From Gemmatimonadales bacterium (GTDB taxonomy: Bacteria; Gemmatimonadota; Gemmatimonadetes; Gemmatimonadales; GWC2-71-9): a DNA stretch of 64,000 nucleotides. Shown piece after piece: positions 11,009 through 24,253 of this stretch. The first letter of the stretch is position 1. Every line of letters starts with the position of its first letter. The stretch lies in contig DASYQX010000049.1 in NCBI GenBank assembly GCA_036004985.1, positions 87,676 through 151,675 on the forward strand. The letters are read 5' to 3'. The translations under genes were made by a program, and so were the position numbers. The notes under the pieces were generated by a model. It saw only the letters and a program-made list of their open reading frames with translations, did not search any database and had not been told where the DNA came from.

Positions 11009-11036
11009 ATCCTAATGACTTTGTCGGGATTGTCAA
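11009..11036 (-). promoter_or_regulatory. Candidate sigma70-type promoter of the suf operon
   Basis: Minus strand reads TTGACA (11036..11031), a 16-nt spacer, then TAGGAT (11014..11009). This predicts a 5' UTR of about 55 nt before the sufB ATG. Confidence 0.35.
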
Positions 11037-11060
11037 CGAGAGAACGGGGACTGGGGCCTG
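11023..11060 (+). repeat. Motif copy c6 (internally shortened, tentative)
   Basis: GTCGGGAT, a gap of 13 nt relative to full copies, then TGTCAACGAGAGAAC...TGGGGCCTG. It shares both flanks and the downstream TGGGGCCTG with copy c4. Confidence 0.35.
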
Positions 11061-17680: not shown

Positions 17681-17730
17681 GGCGTCTCGGCTTCCGCAGC
17701 CCTAGGCGTCTGTGCGTCTGCGCGTCTAGA
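17681..17730. repeat. Solo GCGTCT-rich element related to the right arm at 3437..3490
   Basis: GGCGTCTCGGC...CTAGGCGTCTGTGCGTCTGCGCGTCTAG shares GGCGTCTCGGC, GTGCGTCTG and a terminal CTAG with the right arm, in the same orientation. Confidence 0.4.
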
Positions 17731-17736
17731 TTGTTG

Positions 17737-19286
<1,550 letters not shown>

Positions 19287-19382
19287 AACCCGAGTGTCGG
19301 GATCGCGGCCTTCGGTCCCTAGCTGATCGCCATCGCCCCGGCACTTCGGCCCCCACGAACGCCGAGGGCGGGCTCCTGAATT

Positions 19383-19391
19383 GGGGGGGGG
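19383..19391 (+). repeat. Homopolymeric G9 tract (unit A)
   Basis: Counted directly; preceded by CTCCTGAATT. Confidence 0.95.
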
Positions 19392-19510
19392 AATCGCGAC
19401 GCCCAGGCCAGTGAGGAGGTGGACCCCGCGGACTCGGGACGCACGCGACGAAACGTCGACTAGCGACGAGGCGAAAGAGCGAGCCGGTTGAGGCGCACGC
19501 GAGCTGGAGA

Positions 19511-19550
19511 GTCAGGATACTGCGTCCTTGCTGTCACTGCGAGAATTGGG
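19511..19550 (+). repeat. 40-nt motif copy c1
   Basis: GTCAGGATACTGCGTCCTTGCTGTCACTGCGAGAATTGGG. Confidence 0.9.
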
Positions 19551-19750
19551 TCCACAGGGCGCCTGCGCGTTCGGCCGCGCCGTGATGATCTGCGTCTAGT
19601 GCGGGACGGGCCCGACCATGCGTTGTCTCGCCCACCGTACGCTGGATACCGCGCGGATCAGGAGGGCAAACGCGAGGGGGAGGACCCGACTGAAACCCGA
19701 GTGTCGGGAGCGCCGACGAACGCCGGGGCGGGGGCCGGACTCCTGAATTT

Positions 19751-19762
19751 GGGGGGGGGGGG
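19751..19762 (+). repeat. Homopolymeric G12 tract (unit B)
   Basis: Counted directly at the position homologous to the G9 tract. Confidence 0.95.
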
Positions 19763-19877
19763 AGCGACGCCGAGGCCAGTAGGAGCCCGACCCCGCGGAC
19801 TCGCGAGGCGCGCGACGAAGCGCCGACTAGCGACGAGGGGAAAGGGCGACCCGGTTGAGGCGCAAAGAGCCTGGAGT

Positions 19878-19917
19878 GTCAGAATACTGCGTCCTTGCTG
19901 TCACTGCGAGAATTGGG
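19878..19917 (+). repeat. 40-nt motif copy c2
   Basis: GTCAGAATACTGCGTCCTTGCTGTCACTGCGAGAATTGGG. Confidence 0.9.
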
Positions 19918-20111
19918 TCCACAGGGGGGCTGCGCGTTCGGCCGCTCCCTAATGATCAGCGCCTAGTCCGGGACGGGCCCGACCACGCGTTGTCCCGCCC
20001 ACCGTACGCTGGATGGCGCGCGGATCAGGAGCTCCACGACGACCGTGCCGGCGACGGAAGCAATTGACGTAAGGATGAGCGACGCTGTCGAGGCCAACTG
20101 CGCTCTGATAT

Positions 20112-20143
20112 GTCGGGATACTGCGTCCTTGCTGTCACTACGA
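20112..20143 (+). repeat. Motif copy c3 (3' part diverged)
   Basis: GTCGGGATACTGCGTCCTTGCTGTCACTACGA, then unrelated sequence. Confidence 0.85.
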
Positions 20144-20262
20144 ACCCCTGGGACGCCGACTGGCGAATACTACGACGGTTTCGTGCTCCAAGGCCGCGTC
20201 GAATGGGGCGACGACTTCAGGCGCCTACCACGCCCAAGAACGAGAAACGTGAGGATCTGAGC
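20144..20262 (+). pseudogene. Relic of a duplicated 5' segment of the caspase-like gene (PPC-repeat fragment)
   Basis: 20158..20196 matches 20473..20511 of the intact gene at 30/39 nt (hand count). It encodes TGEYYDGFVLQGR versus QTGEFYDSYEFQGR. No signal peptide or continuation. Confidence 0.4.
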
Positions 20263-20280
20263 GCGAACTGAAGGCTGCGT

Positions 20281-20320
20281 GTCGGGATACTGCATCCTTG
20301 CTGTCACTACGAGAATTGGG
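20281..20320 (+). repeat. 40-nt motif copy c4, immediately upstream of the caspase-like gene
   Basis: GTCGGGATACTGCATCCTTGCTGTCACTACGAGAATTGGG. It ends 21 nt before the ATG, with GGAAGGAGGA in between. Confidence 0.9.
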
Positions 20321-20341
20321 GCCTGCGGAAGGAGGACTCGC

Positions 20342-22585
20342 ATGGACGGTCTCTGGCGGCGGTGGGTCGTGGTGTGCGTTGCGGCAATCCCCAGCGTGCT
20401 CGCCGCACAGGGTGGCGGCACCGCGCCCATCGTGCATCGGGGCGCGCTGGCGAGCGGCGACGGCCAGCTGCAGACGGGCGAATTCTACGACAGCTACGAG
20501 TTCCAGGGTCGGGCAGGCCAACGGGTGGCGTTCGACCTCACGTCCTCGGCCTTCGATCCCTATCTGATGGTGATCGCCCCATCCGGTGACAAGAAGGAAA
20601 ACGACGACTTCAACGGCTCGAGCAGCCGTTCGCGGCTCGAGCTCGCCCTCGAGGAGACCGGGACCTACCGGGTCGTAGTCACCTCCTATAAGAAGGACGA
20701 AGCGGGCGCGTACGAGCTGCGCATCGAGACGGGCGCGGCGGCGGGGGCCGGGAGCCCGGCCCCGGGGGTCCGGGTCGAGAGCGGCCGCCTGGCGGCGGGC
20801 GACACGACGCTCCGCACGGGCGAATACCGCGACTCCTACACCTTCGCGGGACGGCGCGGGCAGACCGCAACTGTGGACCTACGGTCCACCGCGTTCGACC
20901 CGTATCTCATCGTGATCGACCCGAGCGGCAAACAGCACGAGAACGACGATTACGCGGGCGATGCCAACCGCTCGCTCGTGTCGTACGAGCTGCCGGAAGA
21001 CGGCACCTATCGGGTCTGGGTCACCTCGTACAAGAGCGGCGAGACCGGCCAGTACGACGTCCGGATCCAAAGCGGGACGGCGGGCGCGGCGGCGGTCGCT
21101 GCGACACCGCGCGTGGAGCGCGGTCGCCTGGCGGCGGGCGACGACACCCTCCGTTCGGGAGAGTACGTGGACAGCTACACGCTCGAGGGGCGCCCCGGTC
21201 AGCACGTCACGCTCGACGTGGCCTCGAACGACTTCGACACGTACCTGATGCTCGTCCCCCCCCGGGGCGAGCGCCTCTGGAACGATGACGTCGAAGGCAA
21301 GCCGCACCACAGCGTCATCGAGGCCGACCTCAACGAAGCCGGACAGTACCGGGTCGCGGTCACGTCCTACGAGCGCGGCGAGACGGGAGCGTACGAGCTG
21401 CGGATCGACTACGGCGCCCCCGCGGCGGCGAGCCCCGCGACGGGGCGTACGCGCGACGTCGAAGCGATCGCCTACGGCGACACAAAGACCGGCGCCTTGT
21501 CCTCGGCCGACGCGCGGCTCTCCAGTGGGGAATACCGGGACCTCTACGCCTTCGACGGCGCGACGGGCGACTCGATCGTCGTCGAGCTCGCATCCGGCGA
21601 GTTCGACCCCTACCTGTCCCTGATCCCCCCCGGAGAGGGACAGGAGCAAATTGACAACGACGACGCCGACGGCCGGCAGGACTTGTCTCGCGTCACCGTG
21701 AGGCTCCGTGCGAGCGGCCGGTACCGGATCATGGCGACGTCGTACGCGGCGGCCAAAACGGGGGCGTACCGGCTCTCGCTGCGGCGCGCCGCGACCGGTG
21801 GCGGGCCCGCCGTTGTGGCTCGCCCCCCCGCGGCGACGGGCGGCCGGGTGTACGGCGTCTTCGTCGGCATCTCGAATTACGGTGGCCGCGCCAACAACCT
21901 CATGTTCACGGCGGACGACGCCCGCCGGATGTACGATGCGATGCTGCGCGGCGCCGGCATGCGGGCCGCGGATGGCGTGGTGCTCGTGGACCAGCAGGCC
22001 ACGTTGGCCGCGGTGCGCCAGGCGATCGAGCGCGTCGGGCGCGAGGCGGGCCCCAACGACATGTTCGTGCTCTTCTACTCCGGGCACGGCGGCCGCAACC
22101 CGCGGGCCGGCGGCCAAGCGGCCGATCCCGACAACCTGGACGAGACCCTCGTCTTTTACGACGACGACTTGAGCGACGACGATCTGAGCCAGCTGCTCGC
22201 CGGCATCCGCGCGCGGGTGTCGCTGCTCGTGTTCGACGCGTGCTTCAGCGGCGGGTTCTCGAAAGACGTGATCTCGGTGCCCGGCCGGATGGGGCTCTTC
22301 TCGTCCGAGGAGGATGTGACGTCCGGCGTCGCAGTCAAGTTTCGGGCGGGCGGCTACCTGGCCGAGTTCATCGCGGAAGCGGTGGGGGACCGGCTCGCCG
22401 ACGCCGACGGCGACCATGAAATCACGGCCCTCGAGCTGAGCCAGTACCTGCACGAGCGTTATCGCGCCGACGTGAAGTCGGGCGGCCCGGGCGACTACGT
22501 GCGGACGGGGGGCCCGCAGACAGGCTACCAACACCTCGTGGTGGATCGAGGGAGCATCGGGCCGTACGACGTGCTGTTCCGCTGA
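20342..22585 (+). CDS. Secreted caspase-like (peptidase C14) protein with five PPC-type repeats
   Basis: Signal peptide MDGLWRRWVVVCVAAIPSVLAAQ after the AGGAGG RBS. Five repeats of about 105 aa (GEYxDxYxFxGRxGQ...FDPYL...NDD...YRVxVTSY...YELRI). C-terminal His/Cys dyad motifs YSGHGG and FDACFSGG. Confidence 0.85.
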   Translation: MDGLWRRWVVVCVAAIPSVLAAQGGGTAPIVHRGALASGDGQLQTGEFYDSYEFQGRAGQRVAFDLTSSAFDPYLMVIAPSGDKKENDDFNGSSSRSRLELALEETGTYRVVVTSYKKDEAGAYELRIETGAAAGAGSPAPGVRVESGRLAAGDTTLRTGEYRDSYTFAGRRGQTATVDLRSTAFDPYLIVIDPSGKQHENDDYAGDANRSLVSYELPEDGTYRVWVTSYKSGETGQYDVRIQSGTAGAAAVAATPRVERGRLAAGDDTLRSGEYVDSYTLEGRPGQHVTLDVASNDFDTYLMLVPPRGERLWNDDVEGKPHHSVIEADLNEAGQYRVAVTSYERGETGAYELRIDYGAPAAASPATGRTRDVEAIAYGDTKTGALSSADARLSSGEYRDLYAFDGATGDSIVVELASGEFDPYLSLIPPGEGQEQIDNDDADGRQDLSRVTVRLRASGRYRIMATSYAAAKTGAYRLSLRRAATGGGPAVVARPPAATGGRVYGVFVGISNYGGRANNLMFTADDARRMYDAMLRGAGMRAADGVVLVDQQATLAAVRQAIERVGREAGPNDMFVLFYSGHGGRNPRAGGQAADPDNLDETLVFYDDDLSDDDLSQLLAGIRARVSLLVFDACFSGGFSKDVISVPGRMGLFSSEEDVTSGVAVKFRAGGYLAEFIAEAVGDRLADADGDHEITALELSQYLHERYRADVKSGGPGDYVRTGGPQTGYQHLVVDRGSIGPYDVLFR

Positions 22586-22623
22586 GGGGGGTGCACCTCA
22601 GCGCGGGGAACTGCGCCACGACT

Positions 22624-22655
22624 GTTGGGATGCTGTTTCTTTACTGTCGCTGCGG
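22624..22655 (+). repeat. Motif copy c5 (degenerate), just downstream of the caspase-like gene
   Basis: GTTGGGATGCTGTTTCTTTACTGTCGCTGCGG matches the consensus at roughly three quarters of positions (hand alignment). Confidence 0.5.
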
Positions 22656-22940
22656 CTAGCTGCCCCGGGGGAAGCTTGTAGCGGTGGGGCGAGTGAAATG
22701 CGCGTCCACCGTCGCGATCTGGATTGCACTCTCGGTGACCGTCACGGTATAGCGATCCGTGACGCCGTCACGGGTGAACTCGAGCGTGTACGTCCCCCCA
22801 GTGCTGACCGGCAATGCCACCCGGTACTGCGCGGGGCCGATCGCCGTCAGGCAGACCGCGGGTTCCGTGACCCGGTCGGAAACAGCGACCCGCAACACGT
22901 TGCCGACGACGCTGAACTCGCCTTCCAAGTGGTAGTTCAC
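22656..22940 (-). CDS. Hypothetical small protein (94 aa)
   Basis: GTG start, strong G/C bias at third codon positions, beta-rich sequence. No family recognised and no clear RBS. Confidence 0.5.
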   Translation of the reverse strand: MNYHLEGEFSVVGNVLRVAVSDRVTEPAVCLTAIGPAQYRVALPVSTGGTYTLEFTRDGVTDRYTVTVTESAIQIATVDAHFTRPTATSFPRGS

Positions 22941-22946
22941 GCACGG

Positions 22947-23165
22947 TTACTGCGTTTCGGTCGTGAGCAGAAGCGCGATGTGCGGCGGCGGGGGCGGCGG
23001 GTCGACGTAGTAGCCCTCACGGATCGCAAAGCTCAGCGGACTGGTGTCCCGGACGGCGTCCAAACCGCAGCCCCAGGGGCAATCAGCGTAGCGCCGATGA
23101 GGAGGAAAGGTCGGCGACCCGTGCTTCCAGTTGAAGAAGATCGCGGTGATCGGCACCGAGGTCCG
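22947..23165 (-). pseudogene. Relic C-terminal fragment of a gamma-glutamyltransferase paralogue
   Basis: 23115..23165 matches 24378..24428 (3' end of ggt) at 44/51 nt (hand count). It encodes RTSVPITAIFFNWKHGS versus RTSGPINAIYFDWKHGS, then diverges with in-frame insertions. Confidence 0.5.
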
Positions 23166-23173
23166 ATAACACC

Positions 23174-24253
23174 CTACGGCTGGCGCCCCTCGACCTCCGC
23201 GATGGCATCGTCGAGCTGTCGGCGCCGCTCCGGGTCCGTCGCGCGTTCGCGCAAGCCCCGCAGCGCGGCCAAGTGCGCGGCGCGCAGCGCCTGGTCGGAA
23301 GGCACCGCCACGTCCGGCCGCACGCCCACGCGCTCCCAGTTCGTCTTCGTGATGGGGTTGATCGCGCGCCCGCTCGGCACCCACACCGCGAAGTGCTCGG
23401 TGACCCGCCGGATGCCGCCCGGATGCGCCCCCCCGCCGGTGGTGTCCCCGACAATCGTCGCGCGCTTCCGCGACTGCAGGTTGTAAGCAAACTCCTCTGC
23501 GCCCGAGAACGTGTTGCGGCTGGTGAGGACGTACACCGGTTTATCGGGACCATACCGCGTGCCCGGCACGGTGCCTCGGGTATAGAAATCATCGGTGCGA
23601 TTGGCGGGACGCCAATACAGCGAGTTGAGGTGGACTGGGTCGGGACCGAAGAGGTAGCTCGACACCTGCGCGACCATGTGTGGTGAGCCACCGCCGTTGC
23701 GGCGGATGTCGATGATCAGCGCGTCGGTGTTGCCGAGGAATGTGAAGGCGTTCGCCGCGACGCTTGACACATCGGCGGTGTCAAAGCCAAAGCTGCGGAT
23801 CTCGACGTAGCCAACGTTGCCCGCCAGCCGTTCGATGCGCTCGAAACCGAAATTGACGCGCTGCCCGAAGACCCTTGCCTGCTCTCGGTCCTCGGGGCTC
23901 GGGCCATCGCCGCCGGGGCCCGCCGGAACGCCGCGGGCGACGAACCGCACCCGGAGGTGCCGGTCGCGACTGACGGCGTGCAAGTGCGCCGTGAGGGAGT
24001 CGGCGAAGGCACGGGCGCTGGTAATGCCGTCGTACTCGCCGCGACGCTGGCGCGCCCGAATCGCGCGGTCCATGGCGGCCGCCGTATCGGGAAAGACGTA
24101 CGCTTCCTTGAGGCGGTTGATCACGCCGTCGATGACGGCACGCCGTTCGGCGGCGTCGATGGTGCGGTCGGGCTGGGGGTCGCCCTGGCCGGCCAGCGGC
24201 GTGGCGACGAACAGGGCCGCGCAGGCGACGGTGAGGCAGGTCCGCAAAGACAC
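23174..24253 (-). CDS. Peptidase S41 family protein (secreted)
   Basis: IIDIRRNGGGS, SRNTFSGAEEF and GDTTGGGAHPG motifs. Start set at the GTG preceding signal peptide SLRTCLTVACAALFVATPLAGQ; the track start at 24469 is rejected. Confidence 0.85.
   Translation of the reverse strand: MSLRTCLTVACAALFVATPLAGQGDPQPDRTIDAAERRAVIDGVINRLKEAYVFPDTAAAMDRAIRARQRRGEYDGITSARAFADSLTAHLHAVSRDRHLRVRFVARGVPAGPGGDGPSPEDREQARVFGQRVNFGFERIERLAGNVGYVEIRSFGFDTADVSSVAANAFTFLGNTDALIIDIRRNGGGSPHMVAQVSSYLFGPDPVHLNSLYWRPANRTDDFYTRGTVPGTRYGPDKPVYVLTSRNTFSGAEEFAYNLQSRKRATIVGDTTGGGAHPGGIRRVTEHFAVWVPSGRAINPITKTNWERVGVRPDVAVPSDQALRAAHLAALRGLRERATDPERRRQLDDAIAEVEGRQP

Follow-up and report, generated by a model that had tools for sequence, protein, structure and literature searches.

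We analysed a 64,000-nt stretch of contig DASYQX010000049.1 from an uncultured Gemmatimonadales bacterium of soil, referred to below as the window (G+C content 69.7%). A short motif recurs around its gene for a caspase-like protease, which lies downstream of the thiamine biosynthesis gene thiC. This motif is one cis element of the thiC–caspase junction, about 34 nt long and found in a small Gemmatimonadales group. A second, older copy stands just downstream of the caspase gene. Because it is conserved far above neutral sites, the 34-nt core is probably under purifying selection and so functional, and its function is most likely regulatory. Four of the five copies in the window are owed to segmental duplication rather than to independent placement.

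Five copies of one core surround the caspase-like gene

An initial annotation, made from the letters of the window alone, had described a 40-nt motif in five same-strand copies and a possible sixth. We defined the motif core as 34 nt and named its copies c1 to c5, with c0 and c0′ for truncated ones. Repeat analysis of the region from 18.5 to 23.5 kb gave one direct-repeat family with five members, all on the plus strand. A scan with a 28-mer of the core, allowing up to 3 mismatches, matched c1–c4, with 0 matches expected from 100 shuffles. A profile hidden Markov model (HMM) found all five copies and nothing else significant in the 64-kb window. The five copies are confirmed in place and strand; the truncated c0 and c0′ had been missed, and the supposed sixth, at 11023, is not a copy. 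Smaller details also held. Taken as a 40-mer, c4 ends 21 nt before the ATG at 20342, an AGGAGG ribosome-binding site (RBS) is present at 20330–20335, before the caspase start, and c1 and c2 each contain two ACTGCG units with a 17-nt offset. Misassembly of the repeated region is unlikely, because the whole spacer between thiC and the caspase gene has the same sequence in two independent Joint Genome Institute (JGI) assemblies (L001, L002). The features of the region are listed here.

17733–17829, plus strand: thiamine pyrophosphate (TPP) riboswitch that heads the thiC transcription unit (Rfam RF00059, 71.3 bits against a gathering score of 54.3)
17877–19286, plus strand: thiC, radical S-adenosylmethionine (SAM) hydroxymethylpyrimidine phosphate (HMP-P) synthase (Pfam ThiC_Rad_SAM, E = 2e-193), with stop codon TGA at 19284–19286
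19287–20341, plus strand: spacer from thiC to the caspase gene, 1,056 nt, lineage-specific, holding c0–c4
19294–19303, plus strand: c0, truncated (GTGTCGGGAT), 7 nt past the thiC stop (repeat families D5, 85%, and D6)
19509–19542, plus strand: c1 core (HMM E = 3e-9), with GAGAATTGGG after it and then the caspase RBS and signal-peptide region in decayed form
19701–19709, plus strand: c0′, truncated (GTGTCGGGA), after a thiC-tail copy that starts at 19654
19876–19909, plus strand: c2 core, tandem twin of c1
20110–20143, plus strand: c3 core, fused to a decayed caspase fragment, with no RBS or start codon after it
20279–20312, plus strand: c4 core, the copy at the live junction, ending 17 nt before the Shine–Dalgarno (SD) sequence AGGAGG (20330–20335) and 29 nt before the ATG at 20342
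20342–22585, plus strand: caspase-like protease gene (Pfam PPC, four domains, and Peptidase_C14)
22611–22655, plus strand: c5, core at 22622–22655 with an upstream AACTGCGC unit, giving four CTGY at exact 11-bp spacing

Copy c5 lies between the caspase gene and a convergent minus-strand open reading frame (ORF) of 94 aa.

The core is conserved above neutral sites

Two relatives that carry the motif, L013 and L010, were compared with the window against neutral divergence. At 4-fold degenerate sites of the caspase gene the window is 60% identical to L013 and 57% identical to L010, values near saturation for sites that are about 92% G or C. The c4 core is identical to the L013 core at 30 of 34 positions against this 60% (P = 3e-4). 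The c5 core matches L010d, the copy downstream of the L010 caspase gene, at 26 of 34 positions against 57% (P = 0.015). The bases adjoining the core show no alignment between the window and L013. Within the window, c3 and c4 share 32 of 34 core positions, though the caspase fragment attached to c3 has decayed.

The spacer is a record of junction duplications

The spacer, which is specific to the lineage of this genome, reflects repeated duplication of the thiC 3′ end, the motif and the caspase 5′ end, followed by internal deletions. The junction was copied here several times, by segmental or tandem duplication, and trimmed to a 1-kb spacer of thiC-tail and caspase-head fragments. Several of these fragments can be recognized. 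The segments 19414–19664 and 19781–20031 form a tandem pair with a 367-nt unit, 88% identical (repeat family D1). The likeness of c1 and c2 needs no selection, since both lie in this unit. Positions 19654–19709 repeat ~35 nt from the very end of thiC, TGA included, then the 7-nt spacer, then 9 nt from the start of the motif (D11, 89%; D6, 94%); by blastn this thiC-tail copy is 92% identical over 24 nt. Directly after c0, positions 19306–19339 are 85% identical to caspase nt 20547–20580, the AFDPYL motif of a PPC domain (D5). Fused to c3, positions 20159–20197 encode TGEYYDGFVLQGR, close to caspase residues 45–57 (tblastn E = 0.016; D7).

Other traces are fainter. The 3′ flank of c1 aligns with the RBS, start and signal-peptide region after c4 at 48 matches in 60 aligned positions, and the best of 200 random windows gave 47. 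Further short collinear matches to thiC or the caspase gene are each weak on their own. The thiC 3′ end is clearly copied only before c0′ (19654–19709) and before the downstream copy of relative L171. Global alignment of the 58 nt upstream of c1–c4 with the thiC tail gave scores within the random range, and thiC-tail relics upstream of these copies are suggestive.

The multiplicity of c0–c4 is therefore a by-product of that process and not independent placement. Copies c1–c3, c0 and c0′ are duplication debris, and c4 is the working junction copy.

The spacer also holds two G tracts, G9 (19383–19391) and G12 (19751–19762), one per tandem unit, each after CTCCTGAATT and differing in length. The GAATTGGGG around them is similar to the sequence on the 3′ side of c1, c2 and c4.

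The element recurs at two positions in related genomes

A protein-guided search retrieved 174 loci, to which the HMM was applied. The related DNA scanned came to 1.35 Mb, almost all of it flanks of caspase genes. The motif was found only beside thiC-linked caspase genes, and no further copy turned up in the window or in these 1.35 Mb.

At the junction, L013, L170 and L173 have a single full copy, GTGTCAGGATACTGCACGCTTGCTGTCGCTACGA, within 66–68 nt, and c4 is its positional counterpart. The 42-nt junction of L010 has a truncated copy, GTGTCGGGATGCTGTATCT (L010j), followed by an SD sequence. The motif starts 7–9 nt past the thiC stop codon. This stop is TGA in all four lineages with a junction copy; in relatives without one it is TAA or TAG, except in L017 (TGA).

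Copies also occur downstream of the caspase gene. L010 has a c5-type copy, CTGCGTAGATACTGTTGCCTTACTGTCGCTGCG (L010d, 2423–2456), past the caspase stop codon, and directly after it, at 2455–2476, an intrinsic-terminator-like hairpin with a T run, between the convergent caspase and gamma-glutamyltranspeptidase (GGT) genes. In L171 a clear thiC tail of ~70 nt with its TGA leads into GTGTCGGGGTACTG, itself joined to the final 14 nt of a GGT gene that is otherwise gone. In L003 a relic, GTGCCGGGATACT, is fused to the intact GGT gene. The element was present at both positions, junction and downstream, before these lineages split, and was lost many times since. An origin as an ancestral thiC 3′ spacer was rejected: distant genomes in which thiC is not followed by a caspase gene (L020–L022, L106) have no motif.

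The junction has evolved apart from the genes beside it. L013 and L171 are ~90% identical across thiC and the caspase gene and 64–76% identical around the junction. The drop in identity extends ~150 nt either side of the thiC stop codon, both against L171 and against L006. Because identity falls at the junction while the flanking genes stay at ~90%, recombination seems to have swapped junction alleles, both those that carry the motif and those that lack it.

A pattern search with ATRCTGNNTCYTTRCTGTCRCTRCG of the genome_contigs and metagenome_contigs sets gave 0 matches, from which no absence can be inferred, as the pattern was too strict. Its fixed T/C at core positions 17–18 (L010d has T at 17) shut out the L013 and L010d variants, and the L013 contig lay in the metagenome set.

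Phased direct repeats point to a putative operator

The invariant columns of the core are G3, A9 T10, C12 T13 G14, T20 T21, C23–C27, C29 T30 and C32 G33. They amount to two WT-R-CTG-Y blocks exactly 11 bp apart, at core positions 9–15 and 20–26. The pattern WTRCTGY-N4-WTRCTGY occurs in all five copies, against 0.17 expected. The phasing extends beyond these blocks. CTG or GTG stands at core positions −10, 1, 12 and 23 in c4, c5 and L010d, and at −10, 1 and 12 in the truncated L010j and in the downstream copy of L171 (L171d). The phased CTG at −10 belongs to the thiC stop-codon context (GAC TGA). In c5 and L010d all four triplets are CTGY. Across 1.29 Mb scanned, three CTGY in phase occur only at motif copies and at one simple repeat, and Tandem Repeats Finder reports period 11 in L010d.

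Direct repeats with such spacing have a known precedent. OmpR/PhoB-type regulators (PhoB/PhoP) bind helically phased direct repeats of 7 bp with a 4-bp spacer, and the core of the E. coli Pho box is CTGTCAT (PMC4415409; PMC4832192). Copies c1–c4 contain CTGTCAC.

Because the repeats are phased at 11 bp, we favour, tentatively, a putative protein-binding operator that would give the protease gene its own control. The core would act in cis on the caspase-like gene, as double-stranded DNA bound by a regulator that reads the direct repeats on one helix face. Candidate binders are a winged-helix response regulator of the OmpR/PhoB type or a ribbon-helix-helix protein. The bound site might control the protease gene by activation or by roadblock. 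The gene would thereby be partly uncoupled from the TPP-riboswitch-controlled thiC transcript that carries it in relatives. Further binding sites would then be supplied by the surplus copies upstream and by the one downstream. The initial annotation had proposed a promoter/operator module; its operator half stays viable through the 11-bp phased repeats, whereas the GAGAAT that it suggested as a −10 box is not conserved.

Our confidence in an operator is low, well short of an even chance, because no regulator, regulon or promoter geometry was found, and several observations weigh against it. The 64-kb window holds no regulator gene (no response regulator gene). The 1.35 Mb of related DNA, again almost all caspase-gene flanks, holds no second site-bearing locus and so no regulon. 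No recognizable −10 follows the core in L013, L170, L173 or L010, so activation of a local promoter is unsupported outside this genome; a −10-like hexamer follows only c1, c2 and c4, 3 nt past the last unit, and the relatives are without one. L010d lies between a stop codon and an intrinsic terminator, an odd site for an operator and a natural one for an RNA element. Each copy stands on the transcribed strand, though descent by direct duplication explains this. The 11-bp period was seen post hoc and could just record an origin by slippage. The junction copy has been lost in many close relatives without visible harm. In L013, L170 and L173 (group A) the core is conserved no better than its flanks, a comparison that is uninformative, the entire surroundings of the junction being 95% identical in these three.

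A possible linear RNA element as chief alternative

The strongest rival to an operator, which we consider doubtful, is a linear, unstructured RNA element in the thiC–caspase transcript, located in the intercistronic leader and in the 3′ untranslated region (UTR). Its binder would be an RNA-binding protein, a small RNA (sRNA) or a ribonuclease. It would act in translation initiation of the uncoupled caspase cistron, or in the processing or stability of mRNA segments; the L010 element might seed an sRNA derived from the 3′ UTR. Every copy is sense-strand and within the presumed transcript, and junction copies lie 15–30 nt upstream of the SD sequence. L010d abuts the intrinsic terminator (2455–2476 and T run), as in the layout of 3′-UTR sRNAs. 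The isolated variable columns of the core show transitions only, which wobble pairing with a trans RNA would tolerate. Of 200 shuffles of the c4 leader, 196 are more structured than the leader itself (z = +1.7), as for an accessible site, and a 6-bp hairpin pairing positions 1–7 with 12–17 is formable in 82% of cells.

Structure and partners do not bear this out. From 19200 to 22720 Rfam yields nothing relevant with the threshold relaxed to E ≤ 5, and the TPP riboswitch is the sole Rfam match of the window. Neither a stable nor a conserved fold was found (z-scores −0.8 to +1.7; RNAalifold consensus −3.8 kcal/mol). The initial annotation had suggested looking for compensatory changes, but the candidate hairpin carries no such signal: its covariation is not above shuffles, with 208 of 500 column shuffles as good, and it is broken in L010d. 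No complementary partner above shuffled cores was found in the operon or the riboswitch leader, and a periodicity of 11 nt has no obvious meaning in RNA. The earlier proposal of an sRNA or 5′-leader element thus fares unevenly. It has no structure, covariation or Rfam match behind it, but a linear RNA motif is still compatible with the data. The initial annotation had not recognized the motif as any known RNA family, REP (repetitive extragenic palindromic) or attC element.

A less likely reading: scars without function

The copies might also have no function and be scars of junction duplication, alike because they are recent and because gene conversion inside the genome and recombination among lineages keep them so. 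We hold this to be unlikely. It suits c1–c3, c0 and c0′, which stand in clear pseudogene debris, and c1 and c2 in particular, which share the 88%-identical tandem unit. The junction is a hotspot of recombination or divergence (L013 against L171, 64–76% there and ~90% elsewhere), the element is lost in most relatives, and in group A its core is no more conserved than the flanks.

The core itself fits this account poorly. Between the window and L013 it is 88% identical near 4-fold saturation, next to intergenic bases that are unalignable, and the same contrast holds for c5 and L010d. It is implausible that a stretch of just 34 nt passed from one lineage to another whose flanks are unrelated. The c3 core is intact despite decay of the coding fragment attached to it. 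According to the initial annotation, a lack of conservation in relatives would mark the motif as local duplication debris. That description is apt for the extra copies and not for the core, which relatives keep.

The proposed GAGAAT promoter and the supposed copy upstream of suf

Another reading makes the core a promoter of the caspase-like gene, with GAGAAT as its −10 box, recognized either by an alternative sigma factor or by the housekeeping one together with an activator. GAGAAT does follow the core directly in c1, c2 and c4, with TGC before it in c1 and c2 as in an extended −10, and the 1-kb spacer in this genome may make a separate promoter necessary. The hexamer, proposed as a −10 box in the initial annotation, is nevertheless absent from c3, c5 and every relative's copy (L013, L170, L173, L010j and L010d), all of which keep the core. 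The same annotation was right that no sigma70-like −35 sits at the correct spacing; there is none at 16–18 nt. A promoter scan returned 0 promoter-like sites in 19000–23300, L010 and L173, and the same scan detects the suf promoter of this lineage, which is canonical. Finally, c5 and L010d have no downstream gene to serve, and a transcript from L010d would run ~25 nt before meeting the terminator. A promoter is therefore improbable. By eye, no sigma54 (GG-N10-GC) or extracytoplasmic function (ECF)-type spacing (−35 GGAAC/TGTCACA, −10 CGTC) fits.

The suf promoter lies where a shortened sixth copy had been suggested, at 11023–11060. This sequence has only the 9-mer TGTCGGGAT and TGTCA in common with the motif (HMM E = 63). 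On the other strand it is a canonical sigma70 promoter, TTGACA-16-TAGGAT, at 11036–11009 of the minus strand, with 10 of 12 consensus matches and ~60 nt upstream of sufB. It is kept in L007 and L171, neither of which has the motif at its thiC–caspase junction. Because it is conserved in relatives without the motif, the 11023 sequence is not a family member and was rejected as a sixth copy. Such a canonical suf promoter shows that the lineage uses ordinary sigma70 hexamers (TTGACA/TAnnnT).

Recombination sites, mobile repeats and coding sequence

Direct repeats of the thiC tail and core flank the caspase gene, very clearly in L171 and as relics in the window, L010 and L003. Integrative elements at tRNA genes and gene 3′ ends leave such displaced tails. 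The caspase gene could accordingly have entered the thiC 3′ end as a cassette at an att-like recombination site, bringing a replacement tail and leaving the original tail and core downstream. The history of the junction alleles, separate from that of the flanking genes, and the recurrent duplications at the junction are in keeping with this. However, no integrase or other mobility gene is annotated nearby in any locus, and the core is without the inverted-repeat architecture of att/attC sites. The relaxed core pattern GATRCTG-N4-YTTRCTGTCRCTRCG has no match in the viral contigs of IMG/VR, and plasmids show no similarity to the spacer. Tandem duplication followed by deletion gives the same layout, and long-term conservation of the core would be left unexplained. 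We regard such an integration as very improbable. The wider suggestion of a dispersed repeat serving as a recombination substrate is likewise unsupported, since every copy found, in the window and in the 1.35 Mb of related loci, lies beside one gene pair in one orientation.

A coding sequence or leader peptide was rejected: the copies share no ORF, as they agree neither in frame nor in start and stop codons, and the truncated ones interrupt the frame. The plus-strand frame from core position 2 reads C-x-D-T-A-S-L-L-S-L-R, and the changes at positions 22, 28, 31 and 34 (LLSLR) are all synonymous. The matching minus-strand frame has the same third-position pattern. In L170 an in-frame stop lies in the spacer just upstream of the core, in the frame from core position 2. 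We treat the third-position pattern as coincidence or as R/Y degeneracy of a putative binding site.

The thiC–caspase unit and its neighbours

The caspase-like protein has 991 homologues, the top ones from Gemmatimonadales. Its translation includes both the His (FYSGHGG) and the Cys (DACFSGG) motifs of the C14 domain, and its putative N-terminal signal peptide is a hydrophobic stretch recognized by eye. In relatives L003, L006, L007, L011, L012, L016–L018, L090–L092, L171 and L174, whose caspase-like proteins are 76–82% identical to that of the window, the thiC stop codon and the caspase ATG are only 13–23 nt apart, with an SD sequence. L014 and L019 likewise have the ATG ~12 nt past the thiC stop.

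Because the gene starts so close to the end of thiC, it appears to be co-transcribed with it and to be, in relatives, normally the second cistron of the riboswitch-controlled thiC unit. Co-transcription of a secreted PPC-caspase (C14) gene with thiC behind a TPP riboswitch thus appears to run across a Gemmatimonadales clade, perhaps with translational coupling. This would be a functional pairing of thiC with a caspase-like protease.

Two small repeats accompany the riboswitch. Three GCGTCT units with an 8-nt period (17703–17727) stand directly 5′ of a −10-like TAGATT and the riboswitch, and may belong to the promoter of thiC or to its regulation. A G-rich repeat, GGGGAGTGGGGAGTGGGGAG (17826–17846), lies between the aptamer and the start of thiC and may be part of the expression platform or of SD sequestration.

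On the 3′ side of c5 the order is convergent ORFs of 94 and 69 aa, an S41 peptidase gene and the GGT gene. The first three, all on the minus strand at 22656–24247 (the 94-aa product with a weak ORF11_beta match), separate the caspase gene from GGT. L003 is without these three genes, and its GGT gene ends 22 nt past the caspase stop (L003 8254–8276). L171 has lost GGT and kept its last 14 nt. At the start of the window, positions 50–2875 hold a parA-like ATPase gene and mnmG/gidA, a gene pair frequent near the chromosomal origin.

Discussion

The picture drawn by the initial annotation survives in part: the copies are real and the sixth is not, and an operator or leader is possible, with the −10 promoter and the dispersed repeat unsupported. 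To our knowledge, the regulation of bacterial caspase homologues is poorly known, and we know of almost no experimentally defined regulatory sites in the phylum Gemmatimonadota. Should the core bind a regulator or act as an RNA control element, it would be the place at which a secreted caspase-like protease gains control of its own, and so a modest yet tangible way into the regulation of bacterial caspase homologues. The locus is also a clean case of local duplication debris that resembles a family of regulatory motifs. The motif is a peculiarity of one locus, not a new element class, and is best described as a lineage-restricted cis element of a known general kind.

A bolder combination is conceivable, and we give it little chance. 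Here a new trans-factor site, in DNA or RNA, would give the secreted protease a non-thiamine signal. At the same time, the flanking repeats of thiC tail and core would make a recombination-prone cassette that was repeatedly amplified, collapsed and exchanged between Gemmatimonadales lineages, with the spacer as its fossil record.

Compared with known systems, the motif shares with REP elements, bacterial interspersed mosaic elements (BIME) and miniature inverted-repeat transposable elements (MITE) a short intergenic sequence in several copies. It differs from them in keeping to one locus and one orientation; it has neither terminal inverted repeats nor target duplications, and the rest of the window and the 1.35 Mb of relatives hold no copy. 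Like the scars of tandem and segmental duplication, c0–c3 stand in a spacer with a clear thiC tail, decayed caspase 5′ fragments and a 367-nt tandem unit. Unlike such scars, the 34-nt core is much better preserved than the surrounding debris and is kept in other lineages.

Intercistronic and 3′-UTR RNA elements differ from the motif in what was found here, which includes no stem-loop, covariation, Rfam family or partner sequence. They resemble it in lying on the sense strand between co-transcribed genes and between stop codon and terminator, and in being conserved noncoding sequence.

The nearest likeness to the operator that we favour is the Pho box and other OmpR/PhoB operators. In the Pho box the repeats stand in for the −35, ~10 bp from the −10, and no such promoter geometry, cognate regulator or regulon is shown here. 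One conserved copy of the motif lies downstream of the gene, and the first two units read GTGTC and CTGCR and not CTGTC. One unit of the motif, CTGTCAC, is a single base from the E. coli CTGTCAT. The architecture is the same: tandem direct repeats with an 11-bp period, each a block of ~7 bp with a 4-bp spacer, in two to four units on one helical face.

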